DNA of 63,795 nt, filler included, from Rhabdomonas costata (Eukaryota), in NCBI GenBank assembly GCA_019059605.1. It is 44 parts of 44 records of this genome, joined end to end, with 100 filler letters (N's around TTAATTAATTAA, not from the genome) between each part and the next. Parts side by side here need not be neighbours in the genome. Positions count along the whole stretch, not along the records: positions 24,696 to 26,048 come from JAHMHO010018465.1; 43 more parts are not named here. One strand, written 5' to 3'. The position numbers were made by a program, and so were the translations under genes. This document shows, in pieces, positions 2,302-49,378 of the stretch. The stretch's first letter is position 1. Every line of letters starts with the position of its first letter. Below the pieces are notes generated by a model. It had not been told where the DNA came from, did not search any database, and saw only the letters and a list, made by a program, of their open reading frames with translations.

Positions 2302-3083
2302 GCCATGGATTCTATGGCAGAGAGCCTGCCGCCGTTTCGATCTTTGGCGGTGCGACCACAGCGTCCCCGAGTCGGGGCAGAGCTCATCTGCGGAGATTCG
2401 GATTCACGATCGAGCCCGTGTTTCGATCGCCGTTCTGGGCGTGACAGACATAACAGACAGCATTTCGCTGTATATGCACCAGAACTGCAGCCTACTCACT
2501 CACGCGGATAGGGTGCGCTTCTTGCTGCAGCGCTTCAGAAAAGCAACGTGGTTACTACTGCGGTTACTACCTTTTGACGTTGGACTTGAAACTGTGCTGT
2601 ACAGGGCATATTGGTGCGGGTGCTACTGGCATGACAACCCTTCGAAAGAGTGAGAGGGCCGAGGTTCCTTCCCGTTTTTACCGGCCTTCAGGCTTCACTT
2701 GCCCGCTTTCCGTTGTTCTGCAACTTCAACTTCAGCATTTTGGGGTCGTGGCTACACGAGTGCACGCTCGCAGAGCGGTTTGGTGTGGGCCACGACCCCA
2801 AAAACNNNNNNNNNNNNNNNNNNNNNNNNNNNNNNNNNNNNNNNNNNNNTTAATTAATTAANNNNNNNNNNNNNNNNNNNNNNNNNNNNNNNNNNNNNNN
2901 NNNNNGTTTTTTTTGCCTTGGGCTGTTTTTTTTTCGGCCTGCTTGGGTTTTGATAATAGAAAGAACAGTGTGCTGACACACCCCTGCACGCCGGTGTGCA
3001 AGCAATGATTTTTAACTTTTGTTTCAAGAGCTTTTGGGTGCTTAAGAAGACAGTTATATACGGAAGAGAGCGAGAGGGCATAC

Positions 3084-6920: not shown

Positions 6921-7621
6921 CATCCGTGATTCGCTGAATCTCTAATCTCGCGAACCCAAGGCCGAGGCTCCCCGAGTGGGGACCAACCCTGGCTTCTCTT
7001 TCTTTTTGTCAAGGCAAGGACCCGCTGTGCGATGTCTCGGGGCTAAACAGCGTGGTGCATCGCAGTGGCATATTTGTAGGTCCGACGCGATTGAGCCTTG
7101 ACACACCAGTCCTCTGTACCGGTACACGTGTATTCTTTTTATTCTCCTGATACAACCACCACCCNNNNNNNNNNNNNNNNNNNNNNNNNNNNNNNNNNNN
7201 NNNNNNNNTTAATTAATTAANNNNNNNNNNNNNNNNNNNNNNNNNNNNNNNNNNNNNNNNNNNNGCTCCTTAATTGATCTGTGCAGGATTAACGCGGGTG
7301 GTTTGGGTTATGGCTGAGGATGCAGAGTCGCCTTGCACTCCCGAAAGGTTAGCTGATAACTCAACTAGTGCAAGACAAAATTTATTGAAATGGCAATCTG
7401 TGGAGATATACAATGAGAAGCATTTTCCAATTACGAAGCGACCGAAGTGGAAGATACAGCATGCCGTACGTCAAAATTCCGTGTGATGTAGGCTTCGGTG
7501 TCGATCACTTCTGCAGTTAGCTGCTCTGAAACACCATGAAAGGCTCCAAACCGAACCAAACCGATTCAAACCAACATTAACCTCGCACACTCCACTCCAG
7601 TTGTAGAACAACGCGCACGTG

Positions 7622-14420: not shown

Positions 14421-15989
14421 ACCCCCCCCNNNNNNNNNNNNNNNNNNNNNNNNNNNNNNNNNNNNNNNNNNNNTTAATTAATTAANNNNNNNNNNNNNNN
14501 NNNNNNNNNNNNNNNNNNNNNNNNNNNNNGGGGGGTGTGAGTAATGGCTTCGTGGATGTGTAGGTTTGTAACGTTCCGGGACCAGAGACGGCCGCCGCCG
14601 CTCTGGGTTGGTATTTGTGTGGGTTGGTGGTGTGTCGTGTTGTGTTGTGTGGGTGGGTGTTGTATTGTGTTGTGCGTGTGTTGCTCTGCCTTTCTGTCCG
14701 CGAGTGTCTTCTGGCGCTGTGGGGGGTTTTCTTTTAGTGAAACCTCCCGTGCTGTAGTGTGACATCATGTGAGATGCACACAGAATGCCATCTCTGGTCG
14801 TTGTTCCCGATTCTTCGTGCGCTCACCTTGCGCACTCAGGTGTTTAGTTAGTTTTTGGGTGACGTTTTCTATTCAGTCGGTTGCTTTTTTTTTGGCGTTG
14901 GTGTTTAGGGCAGTGATAAACGGTCCCAGCGGAAACAAACATATTTACAATTTTGATAGACCCACACGCCATCTTTCCTGCTGAGCCGCCTCCTTTGGAG
15001 GCGCAGCGGGCTGCCCTCCATGTCAGCAGCAGATGTTTCCTCTACCAGCGTTTACCAGCAGCCAGCAGTTGATGGGGTTCTAGCCCGCTTCCCCATACCT
15101 ATAAAAAGAAACTGATTTAACATGCATTGGTACAGTTTACGTTACCCTCTTCTAGTTTAATATACAAAACCGGTTACCGTTACTGCCCCCTCAACGTCAA
15201 TTTGGCCGAGTGGTTGCGTTTCACTTGACCGTCCTTTTCTTTCTTTGCCTTGTAATGTTACACAGCCATATCCACAACTCTCTTATGTCTTCAAATACGG
15301 CTCCCATGCGGCTTCCCTTTTGGGGATGACTAGATTTATCTTTCTGAGTGTCTGAGTGAGCAGAGTCCAATTCCCCCCTTCCTCCTTCGTGTACACACCG
15401 ACACGCAACCTAACATCTGTGTTGTCTGCTGAGCGGAATGCATACCCGCCTGCAGCGAAGAAATTCTCCTTCTGCCAATCGGCGGGGGTGTAGTTCGACC
15501 ATGCTCTTGTGGACGATTTGTGCGGTTTGCTTGGATTTCGTAATGGTCCATCTTTCCATCCACTGGTCAATCTTTCTACATTCCGGTCCTCTCGTCATGT
15601 GATGTGCTGCAAAGCGTAGGCACTTTTTTCTGTTCCGTTCATATTTCGTACAAAACACCCACTGAAGGCCATTTAATTCTAAGCCCCGCACGTGCATCGC
15701 CTCCTCATCCCCTGCAAAGCGTCAAGTGAAATTCCTTGGTTCAACGCAAGCAGAACCATAAAACCCAGGAAATCATCACACTTAAACACGTATGTGTTAG
15801 ACATGCGTTTGACGTCTGACGTTTCACGTGTAACACCCATCTAACGCCCGTAAGACGCCACCCCCCCCCAAACACACCACNNNNNNNNNNNNNNNNNNNN
15901 NNNNNNNNNNNNNNNNNNNNNNNNTTAATTAATTAANNNNNNNNNNNNNNNNNNNNNNNNNNNNNNNNNNNNNNNNNNNNTTTGGGGGA

Positions 15990-23593: not shown

Positions 23594-24697
23594 ACCACCG
23601 TCGTAGCGTGAGGGAAGGAGAAGTGCTGGAAGGCTGGAAGATGGAGGGGGTGTGGAGATGTTGATTAAGAATTAGAACTTAGGTACTCTGAAGTGAGGTC
23701 AAAGGAGTAAAAGAGTAAAATGGAGCAGGGAAGGCTGAACAAAGGCTGAGCAAATTGAGAAAACCATGCGTACCTACCCACCCAATCAACTTTCACCTGA
23801 TTTCCCAACCACACCACACGGTAAACCTCCCAGGACTGCGCCCGTGAGTGCCCCATCTGCTGTTTGGGAGAGGTGGGCGAGTGCATCCAAAGCGGGGAGG
23901 GGGTGCCCTGTCAAGTGGCACCCCGTGGCACGTGTGCGCGTGCGTGTTCCATAATAATTCTGAAAAGAAGGGGCCGAAAGGACCTTGGGATGCTGGCTTT
24001 GATGGACCGACCCAAATCGTTTGATGGACCCAGGGCACCGAAGACAGAGAAGACTGCACTGGCGTCTCGTTGTCAACAAAATCGTTATGCGCGTTCTGCT
24101 TGAATTGCTACCGAGAGCACTTCACAAGTTCAAGAGTCCTGTCCTCCTTGCCTGCGGCAATCGGATATTTGTGTTATGCATCTCTGGAAATTTCCCTGGG
24201 GATGCACTGGGGATGAGCACAGGACCTCAGAAGGGGTCAGGAGGCGACAAACAGACATCCAAATGGGAAGTACGTATCCAGCGACCTCTGCTATTTGTGA
24301 CCTGGAGAAGTATTTAGTGTTAGCTTACGTTTACCTTTGAAGGCTGAATAACAAGAAACACCCGCACCAGCTCTGCGTGTATATAGAGTTCGCCGCTCCA
24401 ACGAACGGGGGCAGGGGAACAGATGAAGCAGTGCCGTGAGGGAAGACAAAAGCAAAATGAATGAATGAAAAAGATGAGGAAAAAGGAGAACCGGTTGACG
24501 CAATGGAAAAGGGGAGGAAAGGATTGGGAACGTCCCATTTGGATGTCTGTTTGTCGCCTCCTGACCCCTTCTGAGGTCCTGTGCTCAACCCCAACNNNNN
24601 NNNNNNNNNNNNNNNNNNNNNNNNNNNNNNNNNNNNNNNTTAATTAATTAANNNNNNNNNNNNNNNNNNNNNNNNNNNNNNNNNNNNNNNNNNNNTT

Positions 24698-25054
24698 GTG
24701 GTGTTAGCGTTGGTGTCATGCGTAGTACTTGGGCTTATGGTGTGTTTATGCGCTTCTTGTGTGGTTGATGGGCTGAGGGTGTGGGCTGAGGGTGTGGTTG
24801 GAGCGTCTGTGTGTTGCAATGGCTGTATGGTGCTTGGTGTGTGGATGCTGTGTCTGGGGTTCTGGGGTTCATGGTTTGTGTGTTTCTGTGTCAAGGGCTG
24901 TAGTGTGCTTGTTGTGTGAGGGGCTGTTGGTGTTGGCTTGGGTGCTTGGGGGCTTTGTGTCAGGATGTTGGGGGTTGAGGTGTGAGGGGTTCGTGAGGCT
25001 AAGGGTATCAGCATGACTATGAGTGAAGAATGCAGTAACTCAGCATGACTGTAG
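24698..25054 (+). CDS. G/T-skewed hydrophobic frame, open to TAG only if TGA=Trp; possible divergent mitochondrial membrane-protein gene piece
   Basis: The frame is rich in Val/Leu/Gly/Cys/Trp. In-frame TGAs lie at 24917, 24983 and 25046 and the first TAG at 25052. GLRVWAEGVVGASV is loosely similar to the atp6 motif GIRLFANMMAGHSL, but it overlaps a 13-bp tandem duplication. Confidence 0.3.
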
Positions 25055-25127
25055 AAGAAGAAACCCAGGGATGCCAGAACCCTTCCATCTCAACCCTGCT
25101 TCGTTGCTCAGGCTAAGGGTGTATTCT

Positions 25128-26040
25128 ACTACGCATGGCTCGCTTACGCACCCATGCTTCGTACTTACCTTCTAAGTCTAAACCTCTACCGGTATTCCCT
25201 GCATGGCTTCGCCCGGTCGGAGCATCCTGTAACCATCCTTATGGTGGTGGAAGGATGCGAAGAGACAGGTATAGGCATTTGGGGTTCTTGCTGTCGTCGG
25301 GATTCACTGCGTTCATCCCTCCTCCTAAATGCGTTGTTCGGTCTCTCCACCGCCATAAGGCGCATACGAGACCTCAGGGTGATACAGAATACTCTCCTTG
25401 TCACTCACTCGCTGCGCTCGTTCGTTCCTAACCCCAAGCCTCGTCGCTGCTGCTCCTCGACTTGGGGGCACGTAGGGTAAGAAAGAAAGAGAGAAAGATG
25501 CTAAAGGGTGTATTTTATGTTTATGCCGGTCGTCACTCCTTGCGTCGTTCCTCCCTACGTGTTGAACTCAAAGGGTAGTGCCTTCTGTCGTCGCTCCACC
25601 CCCATAAGGGGCTTACGCTCCTCCTACCTCCCTCCCTCACCATCCTCGCTACGCTCGTATGGTGGGGAGTGAGGGTAGGGAAGATGGGAGGCTGACCCGA
25701 GGAACCGAGGGGCATGCCGACAGTGGAATACTCTGCTGGTCGTCAGGATGCTCACTGCGTTCGCATCCTTCCTCCTAGATGCATGGTTCGTCACTCCACC
25801 GCTTCGCGGTTCCGTTCCTCACATCATGACTGTATTCTGTATTCTGTCTCTCGTCACTCACTGCGTTCGTTCCTCGTTCCTAGGTCGTCACAATCGCTCG
25901 TTGCACTCATGTTCCTCCTGCTCTTGGTCGTCACAATCGCTACGCTCATGTTCCTCCTTGTATAGTCGTCACACTCGTCGCTGCGCTCCTCCTGTTCCTC
26001 CGGCTCACAATCGACTCTCACTACGCGTTGCTTCGTTCGT
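25128..26040 (-). repeat. Array of at least 12 DNA hairpins with GNA/GNNA loops and tandem G.A mismatches
   Basis: Plus-strand units read TCGTC...TCCTC. Their reverse complements fold as GA-G-GA-stem-GA-AC/GC-GNA-GT/GC-GA-stem-GA-C-GA. Confidence 0.85.
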
Positions 26041-29000
26041 GTCTCATGNNNNNNNNNNNNNNNNNNNNNNNNNNNNNNNNNNNNNNNNNNNNTTAATTAA
26101 TTAANNNNNNNNNNNNNNNNNNNNNNNNNNNNNNNNNNNNNNNNNNNNTCTCAGGTGCTTTGTGAATTTCGGGAACTAGGAGGAGCGGTGGAGTGCGTTA
26201 CTGCAAAGGAAAGGAAGGTGCCGAGGCACCTGAAGGGAGGACCTTTTTTGGGGGGTATCGTGTAACGAGTTATGCCGCCTCATACGTGCACCATTGAACT
26301 TTTCGAGATCAGCCGGACGACCACGAATAAGAATCAAGGAACCATTGTAAATAGCCCAGTCCTCGATCTGCTATCACGAGGTCTCAGACACTACTCCGCC
26401 CCCCCTCTCTCTTCCTCGTGTATTCGTCACCTACAGCAAAGGCGAGTGCTATACTGCCTCCCTTCGAAGTGCTGCAGAACCAAAAGACTAAGAAGTTGTG
26501 AAATGCGAAGAGAGACGTTCACTGCGGTGGCGACCGCAGCATTTCCCACGTAAAGACAAACGGGAGCAGAACACCGGAGGAAGGAGAAAGGCAAAGGTTC
26601 ACAAGCACAGCAAAAGCACAGCAAAAACAGCTCTAATCATCAAATTGAGAGAGCGAGAGAGAAAGAGGAGATGATATGGGATGCTCGGAATGACTACTGC
26701 GCCGAAGGTGTAATTTTTTCGGGTGATTCCGTGATTGCATTGATCATTTGAAGCGAATTGTCAATTCAGTAACCGCCTTTTTATTGAGAAGGTAGGTAAA
26801 GATAGAGTTTAAACACAGCCATGTGGTATGGTGCAGTTCTGAATTTACGGTGTAACGTACTTTAGCTCATTTTAAGCACAAAAAATTGACCCGTTCGAGC
26901 AAAGCAGTGGCTCCGAAGTCGTCTGAGGTTCAGGTCAGCCAAATCCAATAAAACACCTTGGGAGAAAGTCTTTGTGCCCCCTCCCAGGTCAGGAATTTAT
27001 GTGCAATGTATGAAGGCACCTAGGAACTCGGACCGCAGAGCGGCCCAAGACGGTCCAGAAAAAACGCTCACATTCAAGCTCATCCCCTCCTAACACCCTG
27101 CAAATGACTGTGCATGTGCACCACAACCCAACCCCCTGCAATGGTTCTATTGGAATCCCCAGTAGATTTCTTTTGAGTTGGAGTGGTAAGAGTATGCCAC
27201 TATGTTCTACTGAACATTGCGAAAGAAACTCCGTACTCCTGCAGTGAAACGTATCCCTCCCGTTCCCTGGCCTCCATTGCAGGGAAAAATGCGAAGCTCG
27301 ACGTTGCTGAAGAGGGGAACGGCAAAGGGGCAGCTGCACGGTCAAGGCACCCCTGAAGCACATAGGTCACAGACCGACAGTGGTGCCACTGTGCCAAACC
27401 ACCACCGGAAAGGGCACAAAAGAAAGTCCAGCACAAGCAGAGAAGGGCAACAACCTAACGCGCACAAGAACGCATCCGGCACAAGCCTCTCAGAAAAAAC
27501 NNNNNNNNNNNNNNNNNNNNNNNNNNNNNNNNNNNNNNNNNNNNTTAATTAATTAANNNNNNNNNNNNNNNNNNNNNNNNNNNNNNNNNNNNNNNNNNNN
27601 CAGAAAAAGATGATGGTGTTTACTACCAACATTTTTAGTGCACGTATCGTCGTGTCCTCTTTTTCCCGTCACTGGCGTTTTTTGGATTCTCGATGATGAA
27701 TTTTCAACCCCGCAAGCATTGATTTTCGAAATTACACCTCGTATCGAGTTCACATCTAACCCAGCATTCATTAAAATTTCATTGGGGTTTAAATTATTCA
27801 ATTATTTAAGGTGCGAAGGTCAGCCGCCGCCGCCGCGGCTGCGTGTTTTTGTTTTCCGTGATTTTCCGAAATTTTGCGAAAAAACATCGAATGAAATAAA
27901 TTGATCACCTCCATAAGTCACTGTAAGCCCTTTCATAATGAGTATACTTCCCTTCTCATTTCAACCCCTTTCCGTCGTTTCGGTCATTCGGTCATTCGAT
28001 TGCAGTGGTTTGAAGTGGTTTGCTTCGCATCTGGTGTGACCCCTTCCTACTTTTCATCGCCACAGCCACACTGCCGACTTCGCAAGCTTTTGTTCTACCA
28101 TGTTCTACCATGTTGTTGTGAACATCGCTGCGTTCTCGTTTTCTGTTTTTTATGCCGTTTTTCCAGAGCCCCACTCTCTGGAAGTCTATATGTTCTGCCT
28201 TGTAGTGGGCTCTTCTTCTTTGAGTGTCTCGTCGTTGTCTCTGTGTGGATTCCCACCATCCAGACAAATTTCAAAAAAGTCTTTTTCAAGCCAATTTCCT
28301 TTGGAAGGGAGAACTTTCAACTTTTCAACTTTTTCTTCTGACCCATGGTTCATCTCGCCAGTAGGGGGAGCTGCACTCCTTCAAGATGGGAGTGCGCTGC
28401 ACGTGAATTTGTGCAAATGTAACGGTCACTAAATTCGCCATCTAGCGTGTATATATAGGCTGGAGATCTTGTAGGTTTTACTTAAAGTCGCTTCTTCGTC
28501 AAGATGGACGCGCTGCAAGCCAATAAAATTGTGAAGGAGTTCAAGGCAAACCACAACAAGAACACGCCTGATAGGTTTATATTTTTGTATTCAGGTGCAT
28601 TTTTACAGTACGTACAGCAATCGCAACTCAGTCAATTTATATTTACGATCAAGATGGGAAGTTGCAAAGTAAGTGGGAATGTCATGGTAGGTACTTTGTA
28701 CAATCACGGCGCTTCAGTTAACACAAGAAGAGACTTCGGAAGAAACTCGTTGATAAATCAACAGTGCGCGCTTGCGCCTTCAAGCGATAATTGCTGGGGG
28801 GGTTATAATTTGCAAAAGTTGTTTTGGGGATCTAATGAAAGCTAATGAAATGCCCGTCGTTAGCTTGCCTGACACGCTTGGAGGATGCTAGCGACAAAAA
28901 AATTTGAAGCTTGCCCTTTTCCAATTTGATTTGTCTTTTCGCCAACCCCCCCNNNNNNNNNNNNNNNNNNNNNNNNNNNNNNNNNNNNNNNNNNNNTTAA

Positions 29001-44714: not shown

Positions 44715-47700
44715 CTGAAACACTGGGGAACAGCCCTGTTCCGAAAAGAAAGAGCAAGAAGCGAATGAAGAAGAACTGGACGGGGGGTGGGGGTAGCCGT
44801 GGAAACCGCCGTCAACCGTCCGAAGTGGTGAACGTAACAAGCTGTTGCCACAACCGTTACAAGGTGCTATCACATTGCGAACGAGCGAATTACCGCTTTT
44901 AATCACTCCCACAAAAANNNNNNNNNNNNNNNNNNNNNNNNNNNNNNNNNNNNNNNNNNNNTTAATTAATTAANNNNNNNNNNNNNNNNNNNNNNNNNNN
45001 NNNNNNNNNNNNNNNNNATGTGGTTGTGGAGGTGACTGCTGCTGCTCCGACCGCGGCGTTGTGGACGAATATGACATCTCCCGAGCGCAGGCCAAGCTGA
45101 CCAACGGGAGCGTGCCCGTTGAGGACCTTGGTTCAGAAGAAAACTCCTCCAAAACCCTTTGAGAAAGAACGATTCAGTGTTCATGATGAACATATGCCCT
45201 CGGATACGCCTTCCGTTCGGTTCGGACCTTCACTAGTAAAGAAGGCCGGGCAACGACGCGCCCAGTGTGGGGTAATCTCATCGCCCGACTCCCACTGTTG
45301 CCGAAGCTTGCCGCTGTCCACGGAAAAGGGGTTGATAGTGTTCCTCTCGAGACAGGGACCCCCCACCCTCTAACTAAGCAACCGGGGGGAGGAGTGCTAT
45401 GTGCTACACGCCGTGCAAGTGCCATTCGTATTCCTTCTTCTAGTGAAGCGCCGAACACAGTACAAGACGGATTACATACCCGCGGACCCCCGGCCTGGGT
45501 TTTATGACACCCATTTCGGAGAAGCACGATGAGGAGGAGGAGGGCAGTGGGCTTGCTTGCTTCTTCGATTGATAATGCTTTGATGGAATTTTTGAGTGGA
45601 GCCAAAGACGAGGACTCGAAAACGCCTTCCCAAAGTTCCCAAAGATTTCACGGGGCGGTGGAGAAAGGAAAAAAGACCTTGCCCTTGCTCACCAGCACTG
45701 TAGTGGCGCAAGCAATGCCGCGGCTGTACAGCTCCGTGGCAGGGGAGCGCTGTGAGGGCAGCACGACCTCGAACTCCACCCCTCCGGCAACCTGCGGTTG
45801 CGATGGAACAGAGCAAAGACAGGTCAGTACGAAAGCCTGACCAACAGCCACCACTCACACGCCGCATCTCAGTTATGGAAGTGGAGAAGTGGAGATCACC
45901 TACCAGTTCCGGTTAAACAAGTAAGGGGGGGGGGTGACCCTGACCCTGTTTGATTGTACGAACACAAGAGTGGACAGTGGCTGGTGTCTCTGTGTACATC
46001 CATTTGTGGTCCCGTGAGTGCAGCCGGGCGGTTGCCACTGTGCTTTGATTTATGGGCAAATCCAGGAAGGGGTGGGAAGGCAGCGGCAGGTGGGCTAGTG
46101 ACCCGATGGTGTGTCCAGCCAAGGGACTTGCTCCCGCCCCCTCCCCCGACTTCAATGACATGACGATGCTATTTTAAAAAGAAAAATGTCACCATTGCAG
46201 TGGAGTGGTGGCTACCACTACGTCACCTCCCTTCCTTCCCTCAGGAGAATAAATAGCCACCGGCACCACCTTGAACACAAGACTGGTGTACTCCTGCTTC
46301 TTGCCGACCACAAAGATAGTTTTGCCTGGGTCCAGCTTCAGCGAGGCCATCAAAGTACTCACCCCCAAANNNNNNNNNNNNNNNNNNNNNNNNNNNNNNN
46401 NNNNNNNNNNNNNTTAATTAATTAANNNNNNNNNNNNNNNNNNNNNNNNNNNNNNNNNNNNNNNNNNNNCTACCTACGTAGTATCGTACATGTCACTACT
46501 GTGGCAATGGTTGGCACTTCATCATAGAATTGTACTAATTCAAAAAATTAAAGATCAATAAAATCACAGATGTTATGGTATCTTGTCTATTAATTGTAGA
46601 GACTAGTGTTTCATGCACCACTTCTTCACAGTATCATACACGCAGTCACGTAGTGGCTCATGCAGTAGTATGATGCAAAGAGAAATGGCACCGCAGGTGT
46701 GTGGACCATGTTGGCATCACTGAGTCCATCATTACTTGCTGATGGTACGTATGGATTATCGAGGTACGAGGTCACCAGTAGTAGAGTGGATGGTGCCGTA
46801 AATGTCACGTAACACATTATGGTGTGGAGGGGCCTGACCCACCACTCATCTGTAGCATGCGACACTGATGTAGCATAAGGCCAGCATACACACACCACTA
46901 CTGCACACTTCACTACCTCCATCTGGGTGTATGGGTGTGTACGCCACTGGCAGATGGGTGGTATGGTGATCATACACGACAGAGGACATGATGGCTACCG
47001 GTAGTTAGAAGGTAACGTAGTGGGCGCATGCGTAATAGTATCTCATTTCTCTTTCTTGGTATTCAATTCTTCATATTTTGCTCTGAATATTTGCTCGGAG
47101 CCTTACATTTAGAGGTTGTGCATCCCACATTAGCATCAACACATATGCAATTTCCTGAATCAACAATTTTCCCAAGGCTGGTACCATCCATCTCGTTTGG
47201 TTTTGTGTTTAGCCAATGTGAGTATACATTTTTCAGCAGGTTGTTTAAGGTTTTTCTTTCTTTTTTGTGGTTCGGATTCTGGATTTCCATCTCAGTGTTG
47301 GAATTTCGTGAGTCAATTCTTTGATTGGTGTTGGAGATATGAGTTCATGTCTCTGGTTGTTTGATGGTGGTTGGTTATTTGGATTCTGTGTCTTGGTTCT
47401 GGGTTTGAAGGAGGGGTTTCTGTTTTTGGGTTGGAGTAGTTGGAGTTGGAGTTTTTAGGTTTCGGTATTTGCTTTCTGCGTTCGTGGTCCATGATGTCTT
47501 TCGGGATATCAAATCTGAGATGGTGATGAGAATGAATCAAGCAACAGTGACTTCGTCAGTTAACTATAAGTGTAGTTGTGTGAAATGGGACTCCTGAGTA
47601 ACCACATCAAAGCTTATCCAGGCACTTGAAGGATTTAACGCAATGTCATCTGGATAGCAAGCGACAACTACTGTAACCTAATGGTGACAGAGACATGGCA

Positions 47701-49378
47701 CCCATGTAATACTGACCTAGCTTGAGATACGACAATTCACTTTAGTATTCATGAATTACTTCCACAGATTTCCCCCTTATCCCGTCTCCAGCCCCAACCC
47801 GCCTCAATTACGCCACATAAANNNNNNNNNNNNNNNNNNNNNNNNNNNNNNNNNNNNNNNNNNNNTTAATTAATTAANNNNNNNNNNNNNNNNNNNNNNN
47901 NNNNNNNNNNNNNNNNNNNNNTCTGCCTTGGCACCTGGTGTTGCCTCCAGTCAAGGCGCCCTGGAGACTCCTCCGGTTCACGTTGGACGGACTTTCAGGG
48001 TTTGCAGTCCTGCTCTTTTCCAACATTTCCGCTTCAGCCCCAGGGCGCGTTGTCGCTCAGATTTGTCTGCATCTCACTTGAAATGGGTCAGAGAACGGCC
48101 TGCAGCGGTTTCGCAAAAGGAGAGCAGAAGGTGGAGTCAAAAGAGTATGAACACTTAGCACACCTTGATTTGCATTGAACCCCAGCTTTTTCATCATTCT
48201 GCTTCCAGCTTCCCAAGTCCTTGAACGCCTGAACTGGTGCTTTGATGTTTTGGGGTTCTGAATTATGGACTCCTTTGAGTCCAGGTTGACGTTTTGACAA
48301 GCCGAAAAACTTTCAAGCAGAGCAAATACATGTGTCAGTAATAGCCGCAGATGACCGGAAGCCTTTCTCAGATGAGCTGCTTAACAGAATCCTAAGGCCA
48401 CCGTGTGTGGACTGTTTGCTAAGAACCCGAATATGGACGTTTGAATTTCCCGTTTAAAGAACTTTTCCAAGCCGCCCTTTCCCATGGGATTTTTCTGTTT
48501 CGGGGTTCTTTTCCCCGTTTGCTCCCATAGGAGCGAATTTCAAACACGAGAGCAAAGCAATCAAATCACTTGTTGGGAGTGGGGTGAATGGAAGCGCCGA
48601 GGAGGTACGTCTTGTTTCGCTTCGTTTTGGTACCGGGTGCGTGTATGAGCCCACCTTGTGCTCGCAGTTTCTTCGCGGACTTTTGCTTTTTCTTTTTGCG
48701 CAGAGTGTGCGCGAGTCGCCTTTGCCGAGGCCCCAAGGTGATCTGCGTCGTTGCCTGCTCTCGTACAGCTTCGCGGTGTTGTTCAATCTGGTGAAGAAGC
48801 CCGAGTGCAGGTCTCTGACTGAGCGCCACAGTTCGCACTTTCAGTTTGTACAGTAGTGCATGCAGCACAGCATATGATTGCCCTTTAGCCCTTGAGGATG
48901 TGGATGAATTGTGAGTAATACCCTAAGCAGATCGTGAGTATCAAGTATTTATTCCATTGCGTATGCGATAGCCAGGCATCTGAGCGCTTACTGAGTGTAA
49001 TCATTGATGCCTGCTTCTCCATGTCTGTCACCAGGGTTGCTCTTCTGATGCACCAGCAGTTCCTTCCCGCACTGCTCGGCACGCTGGGCGCCCCGAGCTT
49101 CTTCCACAGCCACTTCCCCGCGCTGCACATCTTTGCAGTGCTAGTGCACAAGGCAGAGCTTCCGCCGCACTACACCACAGTTTTCTGGGCCCACTTGCAG
49201 GTAAGTGGTTTCCCGACGATCCAGCAAACCACATGAGACGGCCACGACCCCCCCCCCCCAAACACACCCACAANNNNNNNNNNNNNNNNNNNNNNNNNNN
49301 NNNNNNNNNNNNNNNNNTTAATTAATTAANNNNNNNNNNNNNNNNNNNNNNNNNNNNNNNNNNNNNNNNNNNNGGGTT

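Follow-up and report, generated by a model that had tools for sequence, protein, structure and literature searches.

Tandem sheared G.A pairs and mini-hairpins capped by a GNA loop are textbook DNA chemistry; few natural sites are known, namely phage or plasmid priming signals and simple satellites. The present work concerns a row of about 16 hairpins of this type (counted by eye plus folding, from 25125 to 26003), located on the minus strand of a single short contig of Rhabdomonas costata (assembly GCA_019059605.1). The window, that is the whole stretch of DNA analysed, has 63,795 bases and consists of 44 contigs, each of 1348-1355 bp, whose joiners are N runs around the stop-codon linker TTAATTAATTAA. 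In the hairpins, short Watson-Crick runs alternate with blocks in which 5'-GA on one arm faces 5'-GA on the other (GA/GA blocks, forming a "zipper"), and many of the tips carry a C(GNA)G loop. This pattern is real and lies far beyond chance.

The tips are identical in form to the DNA mini-hairpins d(GCGNAGC) and d(GCGNNAGC), including the C:G closing pair, and all of them lie on one strand. The published melting temperatures are 76.5 C for d(GCGAAGC) and 39 C for r(GCGAAAGC) (PMC13037366); in d(GCA) loops C:G closure is better by about 3 kcal/mol (PMC3201870). The natural sites of such mini-hairpins described in PMC13037366, i.e., the complementary-strand origin of phage G4, ssiA of a broad-host-range plasmid and the early promoters of phage N4, also need a single strand. 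They contain one or few hairpins, in replicons with a known single-stranded phase, whereas the array has about 16 in a row over 0.9 kb, extended via 2-4 tandem GA/GA blocks, in a probable eukaryote and with no replicon genes in 1353 bp.

Bacterial REP/BIME arrays resemble the array in that they, too, consist of short imperfect palindromes which have spread by duplication and cluster in gene-free DNA. The same holds for the repetitive hairpin-forming elements of sponge mitochondria (PMC2800124). Unlike the array, REP/BIME and organellar elements are essentially made of Watson-Crick pairs and fold on either strand; here GA/GA blocks are systematic and one strand folds better by 1.6-7.1 kcal/mol per unit, and neither a transposase nor an organelle gene is visible alongside the array on the 1353-bp contig. 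In human satellite III, the ATGGA fold-backs of (peri)centromeric DNA are formed by the purine strand via sheared G.A pairs, which the pyrimidine strand cannot do; like the array, this DNA is non-coding and repetitive (PMC11014236). Satellites, however, are simple head-to-tail repeats of 5-12 nt, while the array has no array-wide period and shows distinct unit interiors, defined loops and compensatory changes. The chemistry involved, from the mini-hairpins and tandem sheared G.A to the purine-strand satellite fold-backs, is known; no description of so dense a row of composite hairpins (about 16), arranged by a regular grammar, was found in the open-access literature searched.

Identification of the hairpin array

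Hairpins were searched for by outward extension from a loop of 3-5 nt, each step being either a Watson-Crick pair or a 5'-GA block facing 5'-GA. In the strict search, a hairpin had to close a loop of 3-5 nt and to combine four or more Watson-Crick pairs with two or more tandem 5'-GA/GA blocks, no further defect being allowed. It returned 7 hairpins, every one on the minus strand of the contig 24696-26048; the plus strand of this contig gave none, nor did the remaining 43 contigs on either strand (86 strands). Among 500 dinucleotide-preserving shuffles of 25280-26048 (minus strand), 486 had no match and 14 had one. With up to 2 defects allowed (relaxed search), 10 hairpins were found on the minus strand and 1 on the plus strand of the array contig, against 7 on the other 86 contig-strands together; these last are unrelated in sequence, low-scoring and devoid of GNA loops.

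The blocks themselves have a precise identity. When 16 dinucleotide blocks were tried in the finder, matches in the array contig came from GA alone, apart from its trivial TC mirror on the other strand; AG/AG blocks, an orientation that stacks poorly, gave none in the strict or the relaxed search, even though AG occurs 99 times on the minus strand, vs 111 for GA. All the non-Watson-Crick blocks of the 7 strict hairpins (19/19) are 5'-GA/GA. Two sequence patterns recur as well: the base GGAGGA-N6-36-GACGAC is present 7 times in the window, always on the array strand (expected 0.20), and the tip pattern GARCGNAGYGA 8 times (expected 0.34), of which 7 are in the array, all on the minus strand, and the eighth, on another contig, has the second pair mismatched.

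Loops were evaluated on GNA triloop candidates closed by two pairs or more. In the array the closing pair is C:G in 10 cases and G:C in one, whereas the 86 other strands have 118 C:G and 109 G:C, or 1.37 C:G per strand; the 10 C(GNA)G mini-hairpin loops thus compare with 1.4 expected. The minus strand of the array contig has six copies of GCGNAGC and two of GCGNNAGC, neither being found on the plus strand; on the other 86 contig-strands they number 39 and 33, respectively. Individual tips on the minus strand are GCGAAGC, GCGCAGC, GCGTAGC and GCGTAAGC, two of each. A tally by hand assigned 9 of 16 loops to GNA, 3 to a four-base G..A type, 2 to TTAT and 2 to other sequences, and this predominance of three-base loops over those of four bases is more in keeping with DNA than with RNA.

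A background set of 144 unrelated public loci (1.23 Mb, chosen for containing the base motif, with L145-L160 left out of the finder screen) gave 44 strict matches over both strands, with a maximum of 2 per locus-strand and no array. When viral, metagenome and prokaryote collections were scanned for the base-motif pattern, isolated, chance-like matches alone came back, and no sequence relatives.

The initial annotation of this DNA had quoted four unit sequences, which are present as written on the minus strand. It had also described units that fold on one strand, are built from tandem GA/GA blocks and GNA loops, escape ordinary palindrome finders and have nothing similar on the other contigs, and it had made the reading depend on their being commoner than in dinucleotide-shuffled DNA. 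All these points agree with the searches: the strict hairpins are 7 on the minus vs 0 on the plus strand, no shuffle contained more than one, and an ordinary inverted-repeat search listed 8 long-range pairs with no array hairpin among them.

Organization of the array

The array and its units are listed below in the 5' to 3' order of the hairpin strand; energies and z values were obtained with the RNA parameter set.

25125-26048, minus strand: hairpin array; purine-rich strand, A+G about 70% in the first 300 nt
25965-26001, minus strand: nested unit, outer base GGAGGAAC...GTGACGAC around inner GGAGGA-GC[GCA]GC-GACGA; one G.G mismatch
25927-25957, minus strand: unit with tip GAGCGTAGCGA and loop GTA; one T.T mismatch
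25884-25918, minus strand: unit with the same GGAGGA...GACGAC base and an irregular interior
25846-25880, minus strand: unit with 4 GA/GA blocks, tip GAACGCAGTGA and loop GCA; one A.A mismatch
25786-25822, minus strand: unit with GCGAAGC mini-hairpin tip, 5-bp stem, GGA/GGA triple and 2 GA/GA blocks; -10.5 kcal/mol, z -2.9
25736-25778, minus strand: unit Y of module B, 3 GA/GA blocks, 7-bp Watson-Crick stem, loop GCA; -15.7 kcal/mol, z -4.0
25617-25694, minus strand: long Watson-Crick hairpin, pyrimidine-rich arm against purine-rich arm, with zipper tip GAGCGTAGCGA
25587-25624, minus strand: unit X of module C, base GGAGGAGC...GCGACGAC around CCCC[TTAT]GGGG; -15.5 kcal/mol, z -2.9
25528-25555, minus strand: unit with 3 GA/GA blocks and loop GCAA; -7.9 kcal/mol, z -3.7
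25432-25467, minus strand: zipper with 2 GA/GA blocks, clamped by a Watson-Crick stem of 8-9 bp; -20.7 kcal/mol, z -5.5
25400-25428, minus strand: unit with a 4-nt period, (GAAC)2GAGC [GCA] GCGA(GTGA)2, 3 GA/GA blocks
25338-25374, minus strand: unit X of module A, Watson-Crick base GGTCTC/GAGACC; folds on both strands
25293-25325, minus strand: unit Y of module A, 3 GA/GA blocks, 5-bp stem, loop GCA; -11.1 kcal/mol, z -3.3
25222-25262, no strand assigned: Watson-Crick hairpin with X and Y module pieces inverted; folds on both strands
25205-25213, minus strand: isolated GGC[GAA]GCC mini-hairpin
25125-25165, minus strand: hairpin with GCGTAAGC tip, 5-bp stem and GAA/GTA purine-flanked triples; -15.6 kcal/mol, z -3.8

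Units are 28-43 nt in size and are spaced 30-100 nt. Seven of them have in common the base GGAGGA...GACGAC, in which G:C pairs alternate with GA/GA, and seven share an 11-nt tip composed of GA, two pairs, the GNA loop, two pairs and GA, in the variants GAACGCAGTGA (three units), GAGCGCAGCGA (two) and GAGCGTAGCGA (two). Between tip and base, the interiors vary in sequence and length. Other pairings are available: the unit at 25587-25624 may alternatively fold into a GCGTAAGC mini-hairpin, and cross-pairing between the arms of adjacent units is also feasible (e.g., 25985-25938). The repeat families D1/D2 reach 26013 and the contig end at 26048 interrupts a repeat copy, so that the array probably runs beyond it.

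Three claims of the initial annotation have to be adjusted. That units of differing sequence share one fold is correct as regards the fold; the sequences are not independent, since they are diverged copies sharing tip and base modules. The units indicated near 25432 and 25645 do have zipper tips, but these are clamped inside ordinary Watson-Crick stems. Finally, the array does not keep one orientation throughout, as is demonstrated by the stretch 25222-25262, whose module pieces are inverted and which folds on both strands.

A simple tandem repeat was ruled out as a description of the locus: Tandem Repeats Finder reported 7 small arrays only, with periods of 4-26 and at most 58 bp, and none spans the hairpin array, which has no array-wide period. 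A double-stranded palindromic operator was discarded by inspection, the arms not being reverse complements at the GA positions.

Duplicated modules and compensatory changes

The array has apparently grown by duplication of a two-hairpin module of about 115 nt, as indicated by its repeats. The module consists of a spacer, hairpin X, a second spacer and hairpin Y, and is present in the following copies:

25284-25400, minus strand: module A, spacer with an AGAATAC-type motif, X, spacer, Y; repeat families D4, D7, D11 and D18
25730-25850, minus strand: module B, paralogue of A and aligned with it throughout
25575-25640, minus strand: partial module C, third copy of hairpin X; repeat family D4

Comparison of the copies revealed changes on both arms. 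In hairpin Y, GGGAT/ATCCC of module A corresponds to AGGATGC/GCATCCT of module B, which amounts to a G:C to A:T double change plus the insertion of GC on both arms. Hairpin X has GCC/GGC in module A and CCC/GGG in module C; moreover, where module B has a GA zipper at the base of X, module A has the Watson-Crick GGTCTC/GAGACC, and the GA/GA positions therefore behave as paired positions that can be exchanged for ordinary pairs. The second tip pair is complementary in 7/7 copies, being A:T in three and G:C in four. Preservation of the pairing despite sequence change is supported by the compensatory differences between modules and by the second tip pair.

Folding energetics

With RNA parameters, the zipper fold is the minimum-energy structure for most of 13 units, with energies from -5.5 to -20.7 kcal/mol, except for one weak unit at -1.7, and z values down to -5.5. 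In all 13 units the minus strand folds more stably than its complement, by 1.6-7.1 kcal/mol, and z is below -2 for 8/13 units on the minus strand and for 3/13 on the plus strand. The same asymmetry is seen for the 769-nt region as a whole, with a z of -2.76 on the minus strand (0/20 shuffles as good) and of -0.72 on the plus strand (4/20 as good). The capacity of the purine-rich strand to form G.A pairs is a potential read from sequence, and the sheared geometry of the pairs is putative.

Features of the array contig

The contig and its G+T-rich tract are the following:

24696-26048, no strand assigned: contig with the array, 1353 bp, GC 0.54, bounded by N/TTAATTAATTAA joiners; non-coding
24696-24995, plus strand: G+T-rich, A-poor tract, whose complement on the hairpin strand is C+A-rich with G at about 10%

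A coding reading of the contig was ruled out. In the standard code, the longest stop-to-stop frame has 141 aa and each of the six frames contains 8-22 stops. The euglenid mitochondrial code reads TGA as W and TAG as Y (PMC8219788); this recoding opens every frame, and a Pfam search with the four long frames so obtained gave 0 matches. Rfam produced no match in the window at the gathering score, and only chance microRNA-like matches in E-value mode, the best of which (E = 0.11) falls on the long plain hairpin. No tRNA was found, rRNA is likewise missing from the array contig, and blastn of the contig against phages and plasmids gave no match.

The tract from 24995 to 24696 lies downstream of the array on the hairpin strand, and its C+A-rich complement has little capacity to pair. 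Tracts that are G+T-rich and A-poor also occur on 3 of the 43 other contigs (14530-15880, 46470-47821 and 53732-55083), a likeness which weakly favours placing the array in the same nuclear genome as the rest of the assembly. The window also contains 12 motifs of the G-quadruplex type (four G3+ runs separated by loops of 1-7 nt), and the one in the array contig, at 24770-24792 (plus strand), is unexceptional.

GA-tipped hairpins in other genomes

Hairpins with the same tip module were also observed in public sequences. In the chromosome of Salinarchaeum laminariae (behind locus L327), the gene-free stretch L399 2360-2600 (plus strand) has two copies of a 119-nt repeat with three hairpins each; in each of these, a stem of 6 bp is followed by one GA/GA block, 2 bp and the GNA loop, the tip module being as in the window array. 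A tRNA-Ser gene (2904-2989, minus strand) lies about 300 nt from the repeats. The whole chromosome contains 285 tip modules, vs 142 for a reversed-pattern control. Intergenic rows of GA-zipper hairpins with GNA loops are also present in uncultured Halobacteriales, at L366 4150-4360 (minus strand) and L354 1333-1424 (plus strand); the former row is between an Nre-family and a glucose/sorbosone dehydrogenase gene, both of which share their sense strand with the hairpins. The latter includes a hairpin in which 9 Watson-Crick pairs are combined with 3 GA blocks. Haloarchaeal loci account for at least 10 of the 120 prokaryote loci matched by the tip pattern.

In a viral contig, L216 1700-2250 (minus strand) carries GC-rich GA-tipped mini-hairpins in AT-rich gene-free DNA, with 5 relaxed matches within 1 kb; an OTKONC RNA (RF03053) is found at 454-623 of the same locus. 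Head-to-tail arrays with the tip module in the repeat unit are L322 1780-2080 (minus strand; Anaerolineae, period about 45 nt), L337 3280-3600 (plus strand; chromosome of a metagenome-assembled genome, period 86 nt) and L344 7100-7400 (plus strand, including 7160-7340; Bacteroidetes, period about 43 nt). None of these three arrays has an Rfam match at the gathering score.

These haloarchaeal, bacterial and viral hairpins resemble the array in having the same 11-nt tip and in lying in gene-free DNA, often in tandem (L399, L366, L354, L344, L216). They differ from it in that most have one GA/GA block over an ordinary stem, a strict zipper being found for 51/792 tips, and in their density, which is at most 5 per kb, compared with 10 in 0.9 kb in the array. 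Likeness beyond the tip is absent, and so the sequences point to convergence or physics rather than to kinship with the array.

Alternative explanations

Use of the array as RNA is possible, although rather unlikely. The minus strand would be transcribed into a purine-rich, U-poor non-coding RNA, or be part of a long intron or untranslated region, and would fold into successive hairpins that have internal loops of tandem G.A and GNA/GNRA caps and are followed by an unstructured C+A-rich tail, serving as a protein scaffold or platform. RNA energy rules do yield the zipper fold as the minimum for most of the 13 units, three of the loops, GCAA and GUAA (twice), are of the GNRA type, TTTT is absent from the minus strand of the whole contig, and the downstream 300 nt of the same strand are G-poor and could not pair; furthermore, the probable host group leans heavily on RNA hairpins in its nonconventional introns, as described in PMC12501133. 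A structured RNA is nevertheless at odds with the Rfam results (0 at the gathering score and chance microRNA-like matches in E-value mode) and with the prevalence of GNA triloops over four-base G..A loops (9 vs 3), for which RNA rules have no triloop bonus; moreover, the RNA mini-hairpin melts about 37 C below the DNA one (PMC13037366), and no promoter or processing signal was identified on the contig. Little probability is given to the proposal, made in the initial annotation, that the array is the origin or priming region of a molecule that is organellar, episomal (as are the euglenid rDNA circles) or viral and is single-stranded during part of its replication. Euglenid rDNA is extrachromosomal (PMC9082867), similar mini-hairpin tips occur at the G4 complementary-strand origin, ssiA and the N4 early promoters (PMC13037366), and a cluster of similar kind, though looser, is present in gene-free AT-rich DNA of the viral contig L216. 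Yet nothing found places the array on such a molecule: the contig contains no gene piece, even with TGA=W and TAG=Y, no rRNA or tRNA and no blastn match to phage or plasmid; its GC of 0.54 and the G+T-rich tracts shared with 3/43 other contigs make it look like the rest of the assembly, and the known priming signals have one or few hairpins against about sixteen.

It is also improbable that the fold is functionless, i.e., that the array is a complex satellite-like repeat whose hairpins are by-products of duplication, inversion and conversion of purine-rich motifs. Such an origin is suggested by the seven copies each of the 11-nt tip and of the common base, by the duplicated modules of about 115 nt, by the inversion of module pieces at 25222-25262, by the ability of the arms of neighbouring units to cross-pair and by the contig itself, which is short and ends within a repeat, as collapsed repeats do. 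Duplication plus inversion, however, generate Watson-Crick palindromes on both strands, and not 19/19 GA/GA blocks with no AG/AG and with C:G-closed GNA loops; the paralogues show paired changes on both arms, the dinucleotide-preserving shuffles have at most one match, and no array-wide period emerged from Tandem Repeats Finder. As for the further roles advanced in the initial annotation, nothing specific speaks for a mobile hairpin element or for nuclease protection, and a replication or priming region is one reading among several.

Two other candidates were rejected. Integron attC-like sites were excluded, given the lack of cassettes and the distance of 30-100 nt between units, by comparison with the known features of attC. 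A euglenid nonconventional intron was dismissed upon inspection: the outer pairs are G:C alternating with GA/GA, CDG/CH'G triplets are lacking and there are no flanking exons. The signature of these introns, as given in PMC12501133, is N3-CDG ... CH'G-N5-6 followed by a purine, with the triplets paired.

Other features of the window

Three regions on other contigs, which carry eukaryotic exons, gave protein-level observations. The segment 4767-5090 (minus strand), with AG|GT borders, encodes part of a DEAH-box helicase of the Prp43/DHX15 type. Among the matches listed for this exon, the best named relative at full coverage is a Euglena gracilis RNA helicase (85% identity), and further relatives are an MMETSP transcript (85%) and an ENA protein (84%). 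The assembly would thus probably derive from a euglenid, one whose own protein is absent from the collection searched. The segment 59945-60526 (plus strand) is a 193-aa open frame with a Cys/His motif typical of retroelement-associated proteins; the nearest protein-atlas clusters are eukaryotic proteins without a name, with nothing decisive, and one weaker cluster has zf-RVT in 42% of its members. At a contig end, 35637-36206 (minus strand) is an exon-like frame of 190 aa that resembles the C-terminal part of a serine hydrolase; no homologue was found among longer proteins.

Proposed role and significance of the array

The single-strand fold is probably maintained. The exclusive orientation of the GA/GA blocks, the C:G closure of the GNA tips, the restriction to one strand and the paired changes between paralogues would hardly result from duplication and composition alone. 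From these features we infer selection on pairing. DNA is taken as the relevant molecule for what follows on function, the dominant three-base GNA loops being the optimum for DNA but not for RNA; use of the fold as single-stranded DNA is plausible, if somewhat short of probable. The array would be a non-coding repeat, presumably located in a chromosome of a probable euglenid, whose purine-rich minus strand is kept able to form a row of small hairpins, with C(GNA)G tips and with short Watson-Crick runs alternating with tandem 5'-GA/GA of the sheared type. Opening of the duplex, during replication or transcription, would let the purine strand snap into hairpins, while the pyrimidine strand, unable to fold, would remain extended. 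The two strands would thus be differently marked, providing a strand-specific signal that may act as a landing, priming or pausing site or in protein loading; alternatively, the hairpins may keep an opened or RNA-hybridised region open.

Several observations weigh against this interpretation. The standard DNA nearest-neighbour model, in which neither sheared G.A nor GNA loops are parameterised (the RNA set does score tandem G.A), gave the six pure zipper units a minimum free energy of 0 to -2.4 kcal/mol and z values of -0.56 to +2.12, i.e., the shuffle level; because this model misses the fold, the argument for stability in DNA rests on the published melting of short model oligomers. The parameters that recover the predicted fold are those of RNA and three loops are of the GNRA type; in addition, a transcript is single-stranded by nature and chromosomal DNA only briefly so. 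Pyrimidine-GA-purine is the best context for sheared tandem G.A in DNA, and both arms have such flanks in 7/19 GA blocks, the other 12 being mixed. The sharing of tips and bases makes part of the "conserved fold" a matter of common descent, and the case for compensation comes from three paralogous modules. Lastly, the array is known from one contig of 1.35 kb without relatives, which may be contamination by a virus or another organism, and the weight of the finding is limited by this single short contig.

A wider view, to which a low likelihood is assigned, is that the array represents the most elaborate example of a strand-marking class of DNA found across domains, made of one-strand rows of GA-zipper hairpins with C(GNA)G tips. 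In a euglenid chromosome or episome, opening of the duplex would let the purine strand lock into hairpins and hold the region open, for example by stabilising the R-loop of a purine-rich transcript or by exposing the pyrimidine strand as a priming template; the simpler haloarchaeal, bacterial and viral arrays would then be relatives in mechanism.

Elements of this kind escape palindrome finders as well as the standard DNA folding model, which represents a blind spot, and the simpler arrays of haloarchaea, bacteria and viruses suggest that more of them exist. The unit sequences can be used directly as oligonucleotides for melting, nuclear magnetic resonance and protein pull-down experiments. 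If the proposed reading is true, a one-strand grammar of 0.9 kb kept by compensation would indicate that cells employ non-Watson-Crick hairpins of DNA (or RNA) as designed signals beyond the scale known so far.

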